From the NCBI GenBank assembly GCA_025832235.1, contig GCA_025832235.1_3649.1: a stretch of DNA of 64,000 nt. One strand, given 5' to 3'. Source of the DNA: a phage. Below the pieces are notes generated by a model, which was given only the letters and a program-made list of their open reading frames with translations, had not been told where the DNA came from and searched no databases. The first letter of the stretch is position 1; each line of letters begins with the position of its first letter. Position numbers and translations under genes: made by a program. Positions 24,710 through 54,351 of this stretch are shown one piece after another.

Positions 24710-25870
24710 GTGAGAAAACTTACAACCGAAGATTTTATAGAGGGGGCGAAAGCAGTTCATGGTGATAAATATGATTATTCTAAAGTCAAATATGTGGGTG
24801 CACACACCAAGGCTGTAATTATATGCCCTGAGCATGGAGAATTTAAGAAAACTCTTGGAGATCACCTCCGTAAAAAACAGGGTTGCCCAAAATGTCAGAT
24901 TGAAGCAGAAAGAGCGGCTTATGCTGAAAAATTTAAAGCAGAAGCTGGAGCTAAGTATAATTATAAATATGATTACTCTAAGGTAGAGTATGTCAATGCT
25001 AAAACTAAAGTTGTGATTGTTTGCCCTGTTCACGGTGAGTTTGAGCAAAAGCCTGATAGCCATCTCAACAGCGGTGGTTGCCGCAAGTGCGGGGGAACTG
25101 AGAGAAAGACTACTGAAGAGTGGATCGCTGAGGCAAAAGCGCTTCATGGCGATAAGTATGATTACTCTCTTGTAAATTATAAAACCTGTAATGATGAAGT
25201 GGAGATAATCTGTAATACATGTGGCGCTCACTTCCCACAAAGACCTCATGACCATGCACCAAGTGGAAAAGGTTGCCCCGAGTGCGGGAAGAAGAAGGTG
25301 GCCGAGGTTAGTAGGAAGACGCAGAGAAAGAAAGCATCTGAGGCAGCTAAAAGGTTTGAGGCAAGAGCCAGAGCTATCCATAAAGATAAATACGATTATT
25401 CCAGGGTGGAATATGTTAATAGGGAGACAGAGGTCACTATCATCTGTCCGATTCATGGGGAGTTCACACAAAAACCGTTTGTCCACATCAACCGAAAAGC
25501 TGGCTGTCAAAAATGTGCTAAAGTCGGCTTCTTATCTCATGAACATGGTAGCCTTTATATCATGGTTGACGATCTGGAAGTACCAAATATGATGAAAATT
25601 GGTGTGAGTGTCCGGGTAGATGAACGAAGAAAAGATGTGTTAAAAAGAGCTAAAAAAGCTGGTGCTAGATTCTCTGATCTACATGTTATAAAAACTTGGG
25701 AAGGAACAACAGACGACATGCAAACTTTAGAAAAAGCTATGCACCAAGCCTTGAGCCAATACAAAATCAACTTCACAGAGAAGTTTGATGGCTGTCGAGA
25801 GTTCTTCTACTACAGACCGGAGGTATTCGAGCTAGTAGAAGAACATTTGAAGAAATTTGCTAATAAATAA
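24710..25870 (+). CDS. free-standing homing-endonuclease-like protein (T5orf172 / GIY-YIG-like C-domain)
   Basis: four tandem ~50-aa modules (HGDKYDYSKVKYV...CP.HGEF...GC.KC) plus C-terminal LYIMV...KIGVS...EFFYY; GTG start after AAGAGGA. Confidence 0.6.
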   Translation: MRKLTTEDFIEGAKAVHGDKYDYSKVKYVGAHTKAVIICPEHGEFKKTLGDHLRKKQGCPKCQIEAERAAYAEKFKAEAGAKYNYKYDYSKVEYVNAKTKVVIVCPVHGEFEQKPDSHLNSGGCRKCGGTERKTTEEWIAEAKALHGDKYDYSLVNYKTCNDEVEIICNTCGAHFPQRPHDHAPSGKGCPECGKKKVAEVSRKTQRKKASEAAKRFEARARAIHKDKYDYSRVEYVNRETEVTIICPIHGEFTQKPFVHINRKAGCQKCAKVGFLSHEHGSLYIMVDDLEVPNMMKIGVSVRVDERRKDVLKRAKKAGARFSDLHVIKTWEGTTDDMQTLEKAMHQALSQYKINFTEKFDGCREFFYYRPEVFELVEEHLKKFANK

Positions 25871-43300: not shown

Positions 43301-43544
43301 TGCCATTCGTTTGCATGAAAACAATTAGCAAGTTAACAATTAACAAGTTAATAATATATGACATAATATAAAAGCAGGGCAACTATTATTAGATCTATAG
43401 TTGCCTTGCTTATTATGTCATGATTAACTGAATATAAGGCAACTATGATCTGATTAATAGATTGCAGACAAACTATCACGGGGGTGATGGTTACTGCTTT
43501 TATATTATGTCGCGACTCCGTCGCGCCATGCCATTCGTTTGCAT
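43297..43544. repeat. 20-bp perfect direct repeat GCCATGCCATTCGTTTGCAT flanking a nested palindrome cluster
   Basis: copies at 43297-43316 and 43525-43544; between them 18-bp perfect inverted repeat GACATAATATAAAAGCAG (43360-43377 / 43494-43511) enclosing GGCAACTAT/ATAGTTGCC palindromes. Confidence 0.65.
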
Positions 43545-47494: not shown

Positions 47495-47534
47495 TACTCC
47501 TTGTTAACTGCGTGGTATTTTAACAGGGTTTAAA

Positions 47535-47579
47535 TTTACTTTATTGATGGCCCTAGAGTCAAGGCCATCTAAAAATAAA
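47535..47579 (-). repeat. 45-bp repeat copy 1 (promoter-like element with hairpin)
   Basis: minus strand TTTATTTTTAGATGGCCTTGACTCTAGGGCCATCAATAAAGTAAA; TTGACT sits in the loop of GATGGCC/GGCCATC stem. Confidence 0.55.
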
Positions 47580-47581
47580 TT

Positions 47582-47782
47582 TTACAGGCCTACAATCTCT
47601 TTGATTCGTTTAACCGCCGCCTCAGCGCCTTGGGGGTAAAAATTATGGTAACCAATCACGCGAGTGATACTAATCGCCGTTTGATGATCTTCATAGTCGC
47701 CCTTGAAGATTTCTTGACCGTCAATCAGCACGGCAATTTTTTCTTCTTTTTTGAAGTTAATAACGCGGATATTGTTGCTCAT
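47582..47782 (-). CDS. hypothetical protein
   Basis: ORF; upstream hairpin GGGGA-aaca-TCCCC. Confidence 0.45.
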   Translation of the reverse strand: MSNNIRVINFKKEEKIAVLIDGQEIFKGDYEDHQTAISITRVIGYHNFYPQGAEAAVKRIKEIVGL

Positions 47783-47884
47783 TTTTGTTTCTCCTTTCTG
47801 GTTTTTGTGTTGGTGGGGATGTTTCCCCGTTGATTGTTATTATCCATATTCAGGACCGGATTGCAACACCCCGGAAGAAAAATT

Positions 47885-47920
47885 TTTTGAAAAAAGTTAG
47901 GCCCCCAGGGATCGGGGGCC
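47885..47920 (-). terminator. rho-independent terminator
   Basis: minus strand GGCCCCC-gatccct-GGGGGCC then TAACTTTTTTC. Confidence 0.6.
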
Positions 47921-47924
47921 GTTA

Positions 47925-48044
47925 TCAGTTACTTACAGAGATAAAATACATCCCTACGCCTAACAATATTTCAAGGGCGATGATCTCAAGCCATACCATA
48001 ACACGGCGCACCTTATCGGTGCGGGGCTTATCCTTGGGTGTCAT
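47925..48044 (-). CDS. 39-aa membrane peptide
   Basis: GGAGGGAAGGGGGAGACG then ATG; MVWLEIIALEILLGVGMYFI; below ORF-track cutoff. Confidence 0.45.
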   Translation of the reverse strand: MTPKDKPRTDKVRRVMVWLEIIALEILLGVGMYFISVSN

Positions 48045-48286
48045 CGTCTCCCCCTTCCCTCCTGGTAGTAGTGACGTGGTTTACAATGGCCCCCAGGAGT
48101 ACCATCACCACGCACATCACAAGAAAAATTATCTCCGCTGTTGTTCGATCCATTGTTATAAAATTCCTCAAGATCAGGCCTGAAAATAAAGCGTTCGTTA
48201 TTGAATCCGTCACGCCAGGCGGCTGGCTTCAAATCTTCACTAAAGGGATTAATTAACGTGGCATTATTTAAACGGTTGGCCCACAT
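48041..48286 (-). CDS. hypothetical protein (frame uncertain)
   Basis: ATG after GAGAGGAA; overlaps the peptide gene; alternative frame 48028-48153 encodes a TM peptide. Confidence 0.3.
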   Translation of the reverse strand: MWANRLNNATLINPFSEDLKPAAWRDGFNNERFIFRPDLEEFYNNGSNNSGDNFSCDVRGDGTPGGHCKPRHYYQEGRGRR

Positions 48287-48635
48287 ATTTTCTATTCCTC
48301 TCAAATAGGCGATCCGCCTCAGTTAAACATATCTCATGGGCTTGATCTCTGGTTTTAGCTTCATCGAAAACTTGTTGTGCAAGGCTGCAACGCAAGGAGA
48401 CCGGAAGATCACTATAATAGGCGTTGACAAACGTTTGAGCGTCGTACAGGTCTGAAAATACTTTACCCTTTCTATTATTCCCCTTGTCAACAATTGCAAG
48501 GATAACCAATACAATAGTTGCAACCACCCCCAGGAAAATAGATATAATAAACCATAAAAAGGCGGATCTACCCATCTTGCCAGCGATCCAGGCGTTAAAC
48601 AAGGCAACCAATACAGCCAAAATAATAAATTCCAT
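48264..48635 (-). CDS. membrane protein (two TM helices)
   Basis: start moved to ATG 48635 after AGAGGT; MEFIILAVLVALFNAWIA and FLWFIISIFLGVVATIVLVILAIV. Confidence 0.5.
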   Translation of the reverse strand: MEFIILAVLVALFNAWIAGKMGRSAFLWFIISIFLGVVATIVLVILAIVDKGNNRKGKVFSDLYDAQTFVNAYYSDLPVSLRCSLAQQVFDEAKTRDQAHEICLTEADRLFERNRKYVGQPFK

Positions 48636-48699
48636 TCTATGTACCTCTTTTGCAGTTCTGTTTAACAATAAGGCGGCAAATATGCCGCCTGTTACCTGA

Positions 48700-49080
48700 T
48701 TAAAAATTATCGCCGTAAATCTTTCCGCTTTCTGCCCACACCACCACGCGGGGCATACTATCCCACACGTCTTGTTTTAGATTGAGCGCGTGCAATTCTT
48801 CGGTGGTGCCCATACCTGGCACGGGCTGATTGTATACTGCAAAACGACCACCCGCATAGTCATAGGCCAGAGTTAAATCACACTGGATCATCTTTTTGAT
48901 CATGGCATTAAGCATGGCATTAGCCGCATACTGATCACGTTTTAAAGGCAACTCTTTGATTAGTTTGCGATAGTTTTCAATGTGATCGCACACTGTTTCA
49001 CGTGGAAGATCTTTCATATCCTCGCGAAAGGTAACCAGGTTAAACATGACGGTGTCAATAGCTTTAGTAGTGTTTTTCAT
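48700..49080 (-). CDS. hypothetical protein
   Basis: start moved to ATG 49080 after AAGAGGAAAAC; upstream hairpin GGGGGCAA-gacg-TTGCCCCC. Confidence 0.5.
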   Translation of the reverse strand: MKNTTKAIDTVMFNLVTFREDMKDLPRETVCDHIENYRKLIKELPLKRDQYAANAMLNAMIKKMIQCDLTLAYDYAGGRFAVYNQPVPGMGTTEELHALNLKQDVWDSMPRVVVWAESGKIYGDNF

Positions 49081-49171
49081 GATGTTTTCCTCTTTGTTTT
49101 GTGTGGGGGGCAAACGTCTTGCCCCCTTGAGTTTTAATATAGCAGGTTTTTAGGTTATTGCAACACTTTAT

Positions 49172-49795
49172 TTATGAAAAAGTCATCTCGCCATATTCAT
49201 CCACATCAAACCGCCAATCATTGGCCTCGATAAGGCCGATCAGGTTTTCGGTAGTGAATTGTTCAAGATAGGCTTGCTCCAGGTCTACGTAAACCTTGCG
49301 GGATAGCTCCCGTACCGTCTCGGTGATCAGCTCTTCCAGCTCTTCAACTTTATCCTCTTGCTTGGTGGTCAGGTCTAGCCAATTGGTATCGATGCACCCG
49401 CCTATTGTGTTTTCGTGGTGATAATGGCTAAACGGGATACGCTCAACGCTTGCGGATAGCTCGCCATCGTGCATTGTGCCGAACAAGTGACGAATTGAGC
49501 GGAATTTAGTCAAAGACTTGACTTTACGCAAGAATTTTTCTAAGTTTACATTTTCAGCGCTAATTGACGCGCCGTCACCCTGGCACCAAAAGCCGGACCA
49601 ATGTACATCTGTATCTTCAAGCCCGTACTCTGGAAAAACATATTCTTTATAGTATTCAATTACACTTTCTGCAAAAAAGTTATCCCCGCTGTGTTCTTCT
49701 CTTTCGCGGACCATTTCAACGGCTTTTTCTTTTTGTTCGTCGGTCAGCACGTCGAAAGATAAATTGTAACCTGTGGTAATGTTAACGGTGGTCAT
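49172..49795 (-). CDS. hypothetical protein
   Basis: AGGAGA RBS; upstream hairpin and promoter. Confidence 0.5.
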   Translation of the reverse strand: MTTVNITTGYNLSFDVLTDEQKEKAVEMVREREEHSGDNFFAESVIEYYKEYVFPEYGLEDTDVHWSGFWCQGDGASISAENVNLEKFLRKVKSLTKFRSIRHLFGTMHDGELSASVERIPFSHYHHENTIGGCIDTNWLDLTTKQEDKVEELEELITETVRELSRKVYVDLEQAYLEQFTTENLIGLIEANDWRFDVDEYGEMTFS

Positions 49796-49852
49796 GATAT
49801 TTTCTCCTATTTTCTTTGTTGGTGGCGGGAAGTTTTCCCGCCTGTGTGTTTA

Positions 49853-49880
49853 AGTATACTTATCGAGATTTACTTGTCAA
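49853..49880 (-). promoter_or_regulatory. sigma70-like promoter
   Basis: minus strand TTGACA, 16 bp spacer, TATACT; followed by hairpin 49824-49842, RBS and ATG 49795. Confidence 0.55.
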
Positions 49881-50130
49881 CACTATTTTTTAAATTATTG
49901 TGGCGCAAAATGTTTAAAATCTCTTCAACGTCATCAACACGGCGGCAATTTTTAAACGCTACCAATTGCCCCATGATTTTAATCACTGGGCGGCCTTGCC
50001 AGTGCCCCTGAAGAAAGCGCGCCTTGACTTTATCGGTGGAACTATCACGCCACCAAATAGCCTTGTTGTTGCAGTAGTAAAAATTATTCAGGATAACATC
50101 AACTTTATCAAAATTTTTTAATTTACGCAT
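49870..50130 (-). CDS. hypothetical basic protein
   Basis: GGAGTAAACGCC then ATG. Confidence 0.5.
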   Translation of the reverse strand: MRKLKNFDKVDVILNNFYYCNNKAIWWRDSSTDKVKARFLQGHWQGRPVIKIMGQLVAFKNCRRVDDVEEILNILRHNNLKNSVDK

Positions 50131-50162
50131 GGCGTTTACTCCTTTCTCTCTTTGATGTGGTT

Positions 50163-50190
50163 AGTATAGCTAACCTGTTGACGATGTCAA
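50163..50190 (-). promoter_or_regulatory. sigma70-like promoter
   Basis: minus strand TTGACA, 16 bp spacer, TATACT. Confidence 0.6.
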
Positions 50191-50320
50191 TGATATTTTT
50201 AACGCCATAAAACGGCCCTGGGCGATGTTTTCAGGTTAAAGGGGGCGATTGCATAGGTGGGGGCCTTTTTGGCACTTACAGGGCCAACCAGGGGCGCTAT
50301 TCGTAGGATAGAAATAAAAA

Positions 50321-50350
50321 GCCCCGCACAATGGCGGGGCGTTGGTTGTT
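50321..50350 (-). terminator. rho-independent terminator
   Basis: minus strand GCCCCGC-cattgt-GCGGGGC then TTTTTATTTC. Confidence 0.6.
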
Positions 50351-50546
50351 ATTTGTCTTTATGGCGGTACCGTTCCGCCTGTCGTTCACGTTCCAAAAGC
50401 AGGCCCGGCAGTTTACGATCATAATGATTCCGCCAGATCTTCCCAAATCTTTTTGGCTTATTCAGTTTATTGTTCCGCTGGCGGCGTTCCGGCAGCTCTT
50501 CGGAATCATGAGATCGCTTTAAAATCTTTTCAAAATTAATCTTCAT
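50349..50546 (-). CDS. hypothetical basic protein
   Basis: start moved to ATG 50546 after AAGGGGGGAATAT. Confidence 0.45.
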   Translation of the reverse strand: MKINFEKILKRSHDSEELPERRQRNNKLNKPKRFGKIWRNHYDRKLPGLLLERERQAERYRHKDK

Positions 50547-50883
50547 ATATTCCCCCCTTGCTAACTTCAATATTGGCCTGAATAGCCCGGATACGGCGCT
50601 TTATAACTTCCTGATCTGTGTGATCGTATCCCCAAAAGTCTACAATTTTTGCGCCCCCAGCTTCCAGGCGGTACAGTGTTTCCTGCATTTTGTAAGCCGG
50701 GATCGGTCGCGGTGTTACTTGGTCACCTTCTTTATTTTTATACTTTATAATATAATCTTCATTATCGTTGAATGTCCAAAATGGATATTCTGCAAGGGCG
50801 GTACTTTCCTTTTTATCCTGGATCTTGTTTACAATTAAAGCCGTAGCAATAGCGCCAATAATAAAACTAGCCCCGCTGATCAT
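50536..50883 (-). CDS. membrane-anchored protein
   Basis: start moved to ATG 50883 after AAAGGAGAAAG; N-terminal TM ISGASFIIGAIATALIV. Confidence 0.5.
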   Translation of the reverse strand: MISGASFIIGAIATALIVNKIQDKKESTALAEYPFWTFNDNEDYIIKYKNKEGDQVTPRPIPAYKMQETLYRLEAGGAKIVDFWGYDHTDQEVIKRRIRAIQANIEVSKGGIYED

Positions 50884-50958
50884 GTACTTTCTCCTTTCAT
50901 TGTGTTGATAAACTATCTTTATAGATGGCCCTGCTACCAGGACCACCGAAAAACCAGC

Positions 50959-51204
50959 TTATTTGACGATACCGACAAAACAGATCCCGCCTTCCCCTAT
51001 ATAGGCGATATCGGTAATTTGATAATTTGTCAAGATCCGCGTGTTCAGATCATTAATAAAATCGGTCATCGCGTTGGTGTAGTTGTCTTCCGTGTCTAAG
51101 GCATAATCCCAGGTGTAAACCTTTTTACGTCCGAAGCCTTTTACCATGATACGGGCGCTTTTGGTGTTGGTAGGGGCATAATATTTGGTAATTAGTGCGG
51201 CCAT
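50959..51204 (-). CDS. hypothetical protein
   Basis: ORF; 45-bp repeat copy upstream. Confidence 0.45.
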   Translation of the reverse strand: MAALITKYYAPTNTKSARIMVKGFGRKKVYTWDYALDTEDNYTNAMTDFINDLNTRILTNYQITDIAYIGEGGICFVGIVK

Positions 51205-51247
51205 TGTTTTAACTCCTCTGTATTAGTTCAGTGTTAACAGTGTAAAG

Positions 51248-51292
51248 TTTACTTTATTGATGGCCCTGGAGTCAAGGCCATCTAAAAATAAA
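51248..51292 (-). repeat. 45-bp repeat copy 2
   Basis: identical to copy 3; one mismatch to copy 1. Confidence 0.55.
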
Positions 51293-51293
51293 T

Positions 51294-51635
51294 TTACTCG
51301 TTTTCTTCCAGTTCTGCAAGCTCTTCTTTCACTTCTTCAAGCTCTGTTTGCAATTCCTGGTATTCTTCATCGTCCTCAATATCCAGGCTGTCGATGTAGT
51401 CGCTAAATCCGCAGCGGTAAGCGATAGGATCTAACTCCTTGAGGATACGCGACGGAAGAAAAGAAATGTTTCCGATCATAATTTCGCCATAGATCTCGTC
51501 TAACCATTCATCATAGTTTTCGTCGTACTTGTCCTCGTCGATTTCAAAATTATCGATCTTGTTCTCAAGGTCTGCGATCTGTTTTTTCAGCGCGGCGATC
51601 TGCATGGCTTTTTCTGTGGCGGTCATAGTAGTCAT
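51294..51635 (-). CDS. acidic coiled-coil protein
   Basis: EE/DD-rich; promoter and hairpin upstream. Confidence 0.5.
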   Translation of the reverse strand: MTTMTATEKAMQIAALKKQIADLENKIDNFEIDEDKYDENYDEWLDEIYGEIMIGNISFLPSRILKELDPIAYRCGFSDYIDSLDIEDDEEYQELQTELEEVKEELAELEENE

Positions 51636-51686
51636 AGTGTTTTCTCCTTTTGTGTGCTTTGGGAAGTTTTCCCGTTTACGTGTTTA

Positions 51687-51714
51687 AGTATACTGATTTA
51701 AGTTAGCTTGTCAA
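51687..51714 (-). promoter_or_regulatory. sigma70-like promoter
   Basis: minus strand TTGACA, 16 bp spacer, TATACT; -10 region GTATACTTAAACAC nearly identical to promoter at 49853-49880. Confidence 0.55.
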
Positions 51715-51834
51715 TTAAAAGTTTAAGAAAAATTTTGCTACACCGTTGGCACTACCCATCAACATTTGCGCCAGGATGTAACCAATGATGCAAACGATAA
51801 TAGTTACCTTTGTGTGCTGGCGTGTAGTACTCAT
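51715..51834 (-). CDS. 39-aa membrane peptide
   Basis: AAGGGGG RBS; TIIVCIIGYILAQMLMG; below ORF-track cutoff. Confidence 0.4.
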   Translation of the reverse strand: MSTTRQHTKVTIIVCIIGYILAQMLMGSANGVAKFFLNF

Positions 51835-51867
51835 CTTTAAGCCCCCTTTCCGCTCAACTGTGGTTAG

Positions 51868-51912
51868 TTTACTTTATTGATGGCCCTGGAGTCAAGGCCA
51901 TCTAAAAATAAA
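51868..51912 (-). repeat. 45-bp repeat copy 3
   Basis: TTTACTTTATTGATGGCCCTGGAGTCAAGGCCATCTAAAAATAAA on plus strand. Confidence 0.55.
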
Positions 51913-51913
51913 C

Positions 51914-52309
51914 TCAGTAAGTTTTCAGTACTTTCCCGTCCAACCTGTCTAACTGAATCTCAATAGCTGCAGAAAACCTATTGTAAACCACATCGCCCAG
52001 GGAGTCCAGCCAATCTATGACGTTATACACCTGCTCTTTATTCTTGCAAGTCCGGATCCGTTTCATTACGTAAGACGGATCAATATTAGCGCTCTCGTTG
52101 TTGTGGTCATGCGCCTGGCCTGCTGCGCTAGTTATAGATTTTACAACCACCTGAAAGGGCTTTAAGGTGCCTTTTGCGTTCATCTCACGCGCTTTCGCGG
52201 CGCGGTTGTTGTATGTTACACAACGGCGGCAAATGTTGACCAAATGCATATCAATAATTTTTTCATCGTTTGCCAGTTCGTTCATGATGCGGCGTACGTT
52301 CTTATTCAT
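51914..52309 (-). CDS. hypothetical protein
   Basis: ORF; upstream hairpin GGCGGGAA-tgt-TTCCCGCC. Confidence 0.5.
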   Translation of the reverse strand: MNKNVRRIMNELANDEKIIDMHLVNICRRCVTYNNRAAKAREMNAKGTLKPFQVVVKSITSAAGQAHDHNNESANIDPSYVMKRIRTCKNKEQVYNVIDWLDSLGDVVYNRFSAAIEIQLDRLDGKVLKTY

Positions 52310-52405
52310 GATCTTTTTTCCTTTGTGTTGGCGGGAAACATTCCCGCCTTTTGTGTATAGTTTACTTGAATTTTGCAGCGTGTCAATAATTTTTTTTTTT
52401 TTTTT

Positions 52406-53327: not shown

Positions 53328-53528
53328 TTTTGTACCTCCTCTTCAATTGTTACCTATCCTATAGCATAGGCCCACCAGGTTTGCAAGCCTTCATTCTCTC
53401 CTACCTGGTCAGTTAGGCCCTGCCAGGCTGGCCCCGCCAGGTTGCAGCGGTCAGCGCATCAGGTTAGAAATTTTTTTTTTTGAAAAGTGTTGACAGCGGC
53501 CCCGCCAGGTGGCAAAATATACCTATCG

Positions 53529-53760
53529 AAAGGACGGCAGGCACCGGTGACGGGGGAGACAACCACCGGGGATGGGCGCTGCATAAAATGAGAACGGTTA
53601 TCATTATCATTTAAAAATTTATGCAAAAAAAAAAATCCTTGCTTTCTTTGTCCTGTGTGATACTATAATAACAAGCCGGGGCAACAGGGGCCGGGAGACA
53701 ATCACCGGGCCTGCCCGTTATTCTGCAAACGAGAATGATTATCATTCAAAATTCTAAATG
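53529..53760. repeat. tandemly duplicated ~90-bp noncoding unit
   Basis: both units contain GGGAGACAA(C/T)CACCGGG and GAGAA(C/T)G(G/A)TTATCATT. Confidence 0.55.
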
Positions 53761-53875
53761 AGAACTCCTCGCATTTAATAAATTTAATTAGCATGCTAAT
53801 TACCTTCCGTAACAATCTCCTATAAAATAGTGCCCCATAAAATATTCCCATATAGAAATTTTAAAAATCCATTTC

Positions 53876-54040
53876 TGAAAACGAAAAATCGATTTCGTCC
53901 CCAAAAATTTCAGGTCGAGAGCTGGAACGATTTCCAGAAAATCCGATTCAGAAAACGAAAAACAGATCGAGTACTGAGAAATTTGTCGAGAAAAATTTTC
54001 AGAAAATCAGGTCTTTGAAATGAAAAACAGATCGAGTACC
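53876..54040. repeat. three A-rich direct repeats GAAAACGAAAAA-CAGATCGAGTAC
   Basis: copies near 53876, 53946 and 54008 at irregular spacing. Confidence 0.5.
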
Positions 54041-54351
54041 GAAAGAGATGTGCCGAAACTTTCTGATAATAATGGACTTATTGTTATAAAAGGTCAGAGG
54101 TAAGCTGGGAAAGTTCTGGTAGAAGGGTGAGAGTATGTGCGGAAAATCTGGAATAGTGACTTAAAGTACGGTGCGAACGATAGAATGAGCAGCACATCTT
54201 ATCGTGCCTGTCTTGAAAAATCCATTTTAGTTTTCGATCCATTTTCTGATTTTCTAAGAATTTTAAAATATCTGGCCCGGTGAAATATCAAAAGGAGGAA
54301 ATCCATTTTAGAAATCCTCCTTACACTTGATATGCCAGGGATTTTCAAGTA

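Follow-up and report, generated by a model that had tools for sequence, protein, structure and literature searches.

Promoter-early stem-loop (PeSL) cassettes of T4-like phages, in which stem-loops lie between promoter boxes or overlap them (Arbiol et al. 2010, PMC2839356; Comeau et al. 2014, PMC4122927), are concentrated in hyperplastic regions rich in ORFans, where they mediate modular shuffling (PMC2839356; PMC4122927). Substrates for RNase III of Escherichia coli, such as the T7 early site R1.1, carry structural reactivity epitopes, and their cleavage leaves a protective 3' hairpin (PMC1540722). The present analysis concerns a repeated element of about 55 nt in the region around positions 47,535 to 51,912 of a 64,000-nt stretch of phage DNA (GenBank assembly GCA_025832235.1, contig GCA_025832235.1_3649.1; the whole of this stretch is termed here the window). 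The source phage is a Vequintavirus (that is, an rV5-like coliphage), the 6 kb around the element being 94-96% identical to BP9, LL12, Murica and about 130 other records. The element is read here, with a rough probability of 0.55, as a PeSL-like composite cassette, in which an RNA hairpin, an overlapping moderate promoter (in three of four copies) and a recombination boundary for ORFan cassettes coincide; by analogy, it would be a PeSL-like member in a new lineage, functionally analogous to the PeSLs. No link between PeSLs and rV5-like phages was found in the literature searched.

A repeat search delineates a 57-nt direct-repeat family at 47523-47579 (copy 1), 51236-51292 (copy 2) and 51856-51912 (copy 3), with identities of 86-100%; copies 2 and 3 show no difference over 47 nt, and copy 1 departs at 2 positions. 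The 24-nt core GATGGCC-N10-GGCCATC is present three times, whereas 100 dinucleotide shuffles give an expectation of 0.00. These are the three near-identical 45-bp elements reported in a first-pass annotation of this DNA, which had also correctly placed each of them just upstream of a minus-strand gene and described an AT-rich, UP-like upstream tract. Its set of three was confirmed but is incomplete: a fourth, diverged copy (copy 4), missed there, lies at 50902-50965 and has the RNA sequence GGUUUUUC-GGUGGUCCUG-GUAG-CAGGGCCAUC-UAUAAAGAUAGUUUAUC. All genes here are on the minus strand and, in the reading direction of that strand, each of the four copies starts 1-2 nt past the stop codon of the upstream gene and fills the interval up to the next ribosome-binding site, with the next ATG 20-40 nt beyond the element's end. 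The seven flanking genes are all ORFans: each matches only PHROGs of unknown function and is without a Pfam family.

A covariance model (CM) was built from 38 distinct copies and searched against the window and the remaining ~76 kb of the closest genome, BP9. It matches 4 copies only, all within 4.4 kb of the ORFan-rich early region, and its antisense matches are the same four sites; apart from the copy in the phi92-like phage KKE7M, no further diverged copies were found in the window, in the rest of the BP9 genome or at two phi92-like loci. With a 60-mer as query, BLAST recovers the element from 121 phage records, with 3 detectable places in nearly every one of them, and all of these records are Vequintavirus except for one phi92-like phage. 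Thus the element is a local four-member repeat and not a genome-wide class of promoter, which counts against the distinct promoter class of the first-pass annotation; one of the four copies, moreover, is without a -35 hexamer. An IMG/VR scan with AGGGCCATCWATAAAG returned 56 loci, among which only L018, L029 and L030 are rV5-like; it adds no diversity, because the others are chance 16-mer matches in unrelated sequence. No curated Rfam family matches the elements, even at E<=1, and at the copy borders there is neither a target-site duplication nor any other feature typical of miniature inverted-repeat transposable elements. Plus-strand open reading frames (ORFs) that start in the element (MMALESRPSKNK...) were rejected as repeat artefacts: they have no Shine-Dalgarno sequence and are antisense to conserved genes. 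Existing records label the element 'terminator' in one case and 'promoter' in another, and most leave it unlabelled; the Murica record annotates a 45-nt 'terminator' twice, corresponding to copy 1 and to the diverged relative (copy 4) downstream of an 81-aa gene, while in the Gotham record the element bears the label 'promoter' from PhagePromoter.

Sense (minus-strand) RNA from all four copies is predicted to fold into a hairpin of ~23 bp with one and the same architecture. A GC-rich upper stem of 10 bp (GAUGGCCUUG/CAGGGCCAUC in copies 1-3) carries a tetraloop (ACUC in copies 1-3, GUAG in copy 4) and is separated by an asymmetric internal loop (2/3 nt, UA / AAU, in copies 1-3; C / UAU in copy 4) from an AU-rich lower stem of 11-13 bp, in which the 'UP-like' U-tract pairs with the '-10' A-rich tract and which often includes the upstream stop codon. 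On the minus strand, the full hairpin of copy 1 spans 47532..47584 (upper stem 47546-47569; free energy, dG, -21.5 kcal/mol; z-score, z, -4.7; CM score 75.1 bits) and takes in the stop codon of the upstream 66-aa gene (47582-47584). That of copy 2 spans 51242..51297 (upper stem 51259-51282, loop ACUC 51269-51272, internal loop UA / AAU, lower stem 51285-51297 with 51242-51255; dG -24.3, z -6.5; 80.1 bits), and that of copy 3 spans 51866..51914 (upper stem 51879-51902; dG -26.4, z -6.5; 81.1 bits). Copy 4, at 50908..50962 (upper stem GGUGGUCCUG/CAGGGCCAUC 50924-50947, loop GUAG; 71 bits), has a different lower-stem sequence and no TTGACT; its dG is -24.4 (z -5.6), and that of its antisense -10.5 (z -1.2). 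Over the four copies, the sense minimum free energy (MFE) ranges from -21.5 to -26.4 kcal/mol and z from -4.7 to -6.5. Despite their low G+C, these hairpins rank among the most stable 64-nt folds of that strand of the window in a sliding-window scan with ViennaRNA, which was used in place of a whole-window inverted-repeat search that had yielded short palindromes only and had missed imperfect hairpins.

Natural variation preserves this structure. In 38 distinct variants from 16 genomes or contigs, pairs were counted against the predicted fold; these counts are not formal probabilities, because the variants descend from few events. Paired cells amount to 91.6%; in controls with the 3' side of each pair shifted by 1-3 columns, they amount to at most 54%. 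In the upper helix, 99.7% of cells pair in the sense reading and 86.8% in the antisense, and all five of its variable pairs are altered on one side only and are still standard pairs: four have become G.U, and in one a U.G wobble has become C-G. In the lower helix, six pairs are altered on both sides (for example, GC 16 / AU 11 / GU 4, or UA 26 / CG 4). Mean MFE is -24.2 for the sense and -15.1 for the antisense, the sense being more stable in 37 of the 38 variants; for copy 4, which retains the fold with another loop and another lower stem, the corresponding means are -25.0 and -10.1. The hairpins are weak when folded as DNA, and in this form the antisense strand of copy 4 cannot be told from shuffles. 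Pairwise identity of the element among phages is 0.92-0.97, versus 0.76-0.79 in the adjacent untranslated region (UTR) of copies 1-3 and 0.92 in that of copy 4, and the element is at least as conserved as the flanking coding DNA. The G.U wobbles, the compensatory changes and the persistence in copy 4 of the same fold with no -35 consistently indicate that selection acts on a sense-strand RNA hairpin rather than on a DNA palindrome or cruciform.

Two deposited sequences carry small deletions in the element. In copy 3 of Gotham (L001 5900-5945, MT682716.1), 5 nt (GGGCC) are deleted, so that the upper stem lacks its 3' arm and the -35/-10 spacer is cut to 13 bp; either the element has been knocked out naturally or the assembly is wrong at the hairpin. 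In copy 1 of HMD-6 (L070 9330-9730, PQ505080.1), one nucleotide is missing from the loop and one is inserted after the stem, with the 18-bp spacer kept. This was considered as evidence of a constraint on spacing and rejected, the record having frameshift-like errors; the 100-aa gene downstream of this copy is split into fragments, which suggests homopolymer sequencing errors.

The best-documented property of the element, and one absent from the first-pass annotation, is that its copies serve as recombination boundaries for ORFan cassettes, including in an exchange between phage subfamilies, as comparison of the junction sequences demonstrates. Between copies 3 and 2 lies a 620-bp cassette (51293..51912, minus strand) comprising a 39-aa gene, a canonical promoter, a 113-aa gene and one repeat unit. 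Exactly these 620 bp are absent from phage ime and from IMG/VR contig L029, where the junction is a single chimeric element with the upstream flank of copy 3 and the downstream flank of copy 2; ECP32 and phiWec189 give the same signature at the level of BLAST rather than of the junction. The 335-bp cassette between copies 2 and 4 (50957..51291, minus strand), which consists of the 81-aa gene and one repeat unit, is missing from 241Ecol014PP, and there the junction is a chimera of the 5' part of copy 2 and the 3' part of copy 4. In V18, copy 4 is itself a recombinant that joins the 5' arm of one allele to the 3' arm of another, with a C.A mismatch as the outcome. Copies 2 and 3 share derived states genome by genome: ACAC/ACAC in Alma, ACTT/ACTT in APECc02, a U>C change in both copies of phiWec193, and ACAC plus GCTT in both copies of V18, with derived states likewise shared by copies 2 and 3 of 241Ecol014PP. 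Such sharing within a genome indicates gene conversion; copies 2 and 3 evolve in concert.

The exchange between subfamilies involves KKE7M, which is a Justusliebigvirus (phi92-like, subfamily Stephanstirmvirinae). It has in common with the source phage a module at 51248..51715 (minus strand; 95.5% identity) that contains a canonical promoter, its leader hairpin, the 113-aa gene and copy 2; this module is 95-97% identical to Vequintavirus sequences and, in KKE7M, stands in place of an unrelated 71-aa gene of its relatives. Its left boundary is formed by the canonical TTGACA-16-TATACT promoter with leader hairpin GGGAAAACTTCCC (51661..51714, minus strand), the left crossover falling within 21 nt of common promoter sequence; the right crossover falls within 11 nt, AATAAAGTAAA, which belong to the element's -10 region. 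On this alignment, KKE7M is a recipient of the promoter-gene-element module, with crossovers that map to promoter microhomologies. More generally, the gene content of the region varies among relatives.

The overlapping promoter is a plausible component, to judge from its sequence. In copies 1-3, a promoter scan finds TTGACT-18 bp-TAAACT (TAAATT in copy 1), with 9/12 consensus matches. On the minus strand, the -35-like TTGACT lies at 47557-47562 in copy 1, 51270..51275 in copy 2 and 51890-51895 in copy 3, and the -10-like hexamer, 18 bp from it, at 47533-47538 (TAAATT), 51246..51251 and 51866-51871 (TAAACT), respectively; the latter hexamer doubles as the 3' arm of the lower stem, and a T-rich tract precedes the former. 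The first-pass annotation had likewise recognized a stem-loop around TTGACT, but the stem is of 10 bp rather than 7, with TTG paired and only ACT in the loop; of the -10 sequences it had offered (TAAAGT/TAAACT), TAAACT, or TAAATT, at 18 bp is usable, whereas TAAAGT is only 13 bp from TTGACT. In copies 1-3, TTGAC is unvarying, while the next base of the loop is T, A, G or C across phages. The canonical promoter at 52386-52359 of the source phage has the same -10 context, AAGTAAACT, as does the orthologous junction of PD114 (phi92-like), where it is part of a promoter-like TTGCAA-16-TAAACT with a leader hairpin. The distance from -10 to ATG is 32-42 nt, like that of the source phage's canonical promoters, and the genes downstream of copies 2-4 have no other recognisable promoter. 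Copy 4 has CTGGTA or CTGGCT where the -35 would be, CTGGTA matching at 3/6 positions. The stringent promoter list of the rV5 paper (Table S4) includes neither the element's promoter nor its hairpin.

According to the reading favored here, then, three properties--RNA hairpin, promoter and recombination--would share one stretch of ~55 nt. Transcription of the upstream gene would yield a sense RNA that folds into the ~23-bp hairpin, and this hairpin would serve to delimit the upstream cistron on its 3' side, as a site of RNase III-type processing or as a block to 3' exonucleases, perhaps with a degree of attenuation; by analogy with known substrates, RNase III-type processing or 3'-end protection is the most likely RNA function. 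The same DNA would act as a moderate sigma-70-like promoter (T-rich tract, TTGACT, 18 bp, TAAACT/TAAATT) that restarts transcription for the next gene, this part being largely lost in copy 4. Since single ORFan genes are flanked by copies that are near-identical direct repeats, cassettes would be deleted, inserted or exchanged, even across subfamilies, through homologous recombination of one copy with another or of their promoter-like parts with other promoters. A more ambitious version, offered tentatively and given little credence, is that of a dual-coded portable boundary: the T-rich tract and the -10 would have been selected to be complementary, so that one sequence specifies a promoter at the DNA level and, in read-through RNA, a hairpin that serves RNase III-type processing or stabilisation; the unit would travel with single ORFan genes from Vequintavirinae to Stephanstirmvirinae as an 'expression plus recombination' module, with a loose likeness to an integron cassette and its attC hairpin.

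The element and PeSLs are alike in several ways: each cassette fills the intergenic space from stop codon to ATG, and a stable stem-loop lies inside or across the boxes of a sigma-70-like promoter (a predicted one here) that is accompanied by an AT-rich tract; copies recur within a hyperplastic early region rich in ORFans; and recombination between copies gives rise to indels or replacements, with chimeric junctions and with crossovers in or beside the stem-loop. Of the six features that define PeSLs, the last being promoter and terminator or attenuator activity with formation of mini-circles, five can be examined from sequence, and four of these are found here, namely the intergenic stop-to-ATG position, the stable stem-loop, the ORFan-rich hyperplastic setting, and copies that bound indels or replacements. 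As to the fifth, promoter strength, PeSLs have a strong sigma-70-like early promoter with an AT-rich upstream region, and the element has a T-rich upstream tract and a predicted promoter below consensus (9/12, frequent by chance, with an 18-bp spacer, in copies 1-3; only CTGGTA as -35 in copy 4). The element, furthermore, is found in Vequintavirus instead of T4-like phages and has no sequence homology to PeSLs, its stem-loop encloses the -35, and its AT-rich flanks pair, extending the hairpin to ~23 bp.

Certain observations weigh against this PeSL-like reading. There are only 4 copies here, as opposed to the numerous PeSLs of T4-like genomes. Sites with 9/12 matches number 40 in 11 kb, versus 24.8 +/- 5.3 in shuffles, and the clear promoters of the source phage all have TTGACA with a 16-17 bp spacer, unlike the element with its 9/12 matches and long 18-bp spacer. 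Because no mapping of transcripts or transcription start sites for rV5-like phages (Vequintavirus) was found in the literature searched, promoter use, read-through and processing are all treated here as predictions. Two substitutions break pairs (G>U in copy 2 of phiWec193, U>C in copy 4 of MiataMamis), and the 38 variants are few and phylogenetically related, so that the covariation counts come down to a small number of events (perhaps 5-8). No direction, deletion or insertion, can be assigned to the indels, and plain homologous recombination at any repeat would yield identical junctions regardless of the element's function.

The alternative that deserves most attention, though it is itself rather doubtful, dispenses with the promoter: the element would act purely at the RNA level, as an intercistronic RNase III site, a protective 3' stem-loop or both, in the manner of the T7 early R-sites, and the sigma-70-like hexamers would be a by-product of an AU-rich lower stem and a chance TTGAC. 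Like the R-sites (R1.1, for example), the element is an intercistronic hairpin among co-directional early genes; it lies directly past a stop codon, and its cleavage would provide the upstream mRNA with a protective hairpin at its 3' end, as cleavage at such sites does (PMC1540722). It has two of the structural signals of RNase III substrates: about two helical turns of double-stranded RNA (a 10-bp upper and an 11-13-bp lower stem; criterion from PMC1540722) and an internal loop between the stems (UA / AAU in copies 1-3, C / UAU in copy 4). Both the stability and the wobble pattern belong to the sense strand specifically; copy 4 retains the fold but no -35; and a 9/12 promoter match is commonplace by chance. 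There is no sequence similarity to the R-sites, however, and the rules on antideterminant base pairs in the proximal and distal boxes, which are placed relative to the cleavage site, are inapplicable to the element; nor is RNase III cleavage predictable from sequence. T7 R-sites are not known to be repeats that mediate cassette exchange. An account confined to RNA also leaves unexplained why TTGAC is held invariant in copies 1-3 while neighbouring loop bases are free to vary, why the -10 context is that of these phages' canonical promoters, and why the -10-to-ATG distances fit those promoters as well.

The remaining proposals invoke DNA structure, termination or an operator. The first-pass annotation had suggested that the element may be a structure-regulated promoter; in this model, extrusion of a hairpin or cruciform would hide or expose a -35 held in the loop. 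A synthetic cruciform-repressed promoter was reportedly described by Horwitz and Loeb in 1988; the -35/-10 geometry and the AT-rich upstream tract are in place, and a long AT-flanked inverted repeat would in principle favor extrusion. A cruciform, however, requires that both strands fold, and the antisense DNA of copy 2 reaches only -10.4 as compared with -12.1, while that of copy 4 (-5.3, z -1.4) does no better than shuffles; substitutions of the wobble type are mismatches in DNA; and a regulatory class is hard to reconcile with merely 4 local copies, one of them without a -35. Wobbles tolerated in the sense strand alone and the weak opposite-strand hairpin of copy 4 therefore argue for a role of the hairpin at the RNA level, and structural regulation of a promoter appears quite improbable. 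Nearly as improbable is an intrinsic (Rho-independent) terminator or attenuator of the upstream gene, as the Murica record annotates. The GC-rich 10-bp stem directly past a stop codon would suit this, and in reporter assays (PMC2839356), PeSL stem-loops lowered read-through. Downstream of the GC-rich hairpin, however, the 3' tail reads AAUAAAGUAAAC (UAUAAAGAUAG in copy 4) and has no U-tract, and for this reason the element is not a canonical terminator. A terminator scan calls it on neither strand though it does call other sites of the region, and full termination would silence the genes downstream of copies 2-4 unless the element's own promoter works; canonical intrinsic termination is thus unlikely. 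Least probable of all is a palindromic operator, bound by a dimeric phage or host protein that would control three or four early genes. Inverted 10-bp arms around a variable 4-bp center are typical operator geometry and overlap a promoter-like site, but complementarity extends over ~23 bp per arm, with compensatory changes ~20 bp from the center; the arms of copy 4 have changes on one side with no counterpart on the other, though G.U pairing accommodates them; and no candidate regulator was identified.

The same gene array contains a second type of PeSL-like cassette, formed by the source phage's canonical promoters together with their leader hairpins. Canonical early promoters (TTGACA-16-TATACT/TAAACT), often after a long A-run, occur on the minus strand at 49824-49880, 51661-51714 and 52330-52386, and a short GC-rich leader hairpin (GGCGGGAAAACTTCCCGCC and similar), which on the plus strand looks like a terminator, follows ~10 nt past the -10. 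Both types are intergenic modules of promoter and stem-loop that have the AAGTAAACT context in common and serve as crossover points; the canonical type differs in its consensus TTGACA promoter with 16-17 bp spacing, its A-rich upstream tract, and a short GC hairpin that lies downstream of the -10, in the leader, and not around the -35.

Elsewhere in the window, ~53400-54350 is poor in ORFs and has degenerate direct repeats of ~65 nt (53851-54054) besides several GC-rich hairpins; it possibly corresponds to the box marked 'non-coding' on the map of the rV5 genome, and an origin or another cis-acting region could lie there. At 43357-43420, a hairpin of ~24 bp that folds stably from either strand (-30.8 / -26.8 kcal/mol) probably terminates transcription in both directions, at a boundary between convergent transcription units. 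At 24765-25414, a 29-nt motif (ATAAATATGATTAYTC...) occurs in four copies at a spacing of ~190-230 nt and presumably represents a repeated protein domain within a coding region. Two observations concern the records used for comparison. The deposited BP9 assembly (L072, PP488543.1) looks chimeric, because from ~125000 to its end at 138295 it carries lambdoid prophage and insertion sequence genes (integrase, exodeoxyribonuclease VIII, ea22, InsA, DnaT-like) that are foreign to Vequintavirus. About 20 MG0656xx records named 'Campylobacter phage' (host C. jejuni) are 92-94% identical to E. coli Vequintavirus across the region, and their host label looks doubtful.

No new regulatory mechanism is revealed by this analysis, which is mechanistically unsurprising; its use lies in phage genome evolution and annotation. 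For annotation, it brings together under one element the conflicting labels given in different records. For evolution, it provides a concrete case of transfer across subfamilies in which both crossover points can be read to the nucleotide, and it has relevance for the spread of accessory early genes in therapeutic and typing phages; for engineering, the repeats are of interest as natural points of insertion and deletion. If the PeSL-like reading is true, then the PeSL principle--that small cassettes of promoter and stem-loop act both as expression signals and as recombination handles for the shuffling of ORFan genes--would reach beyond the T4-like phages to rV5-like and phi92-like coliphages.

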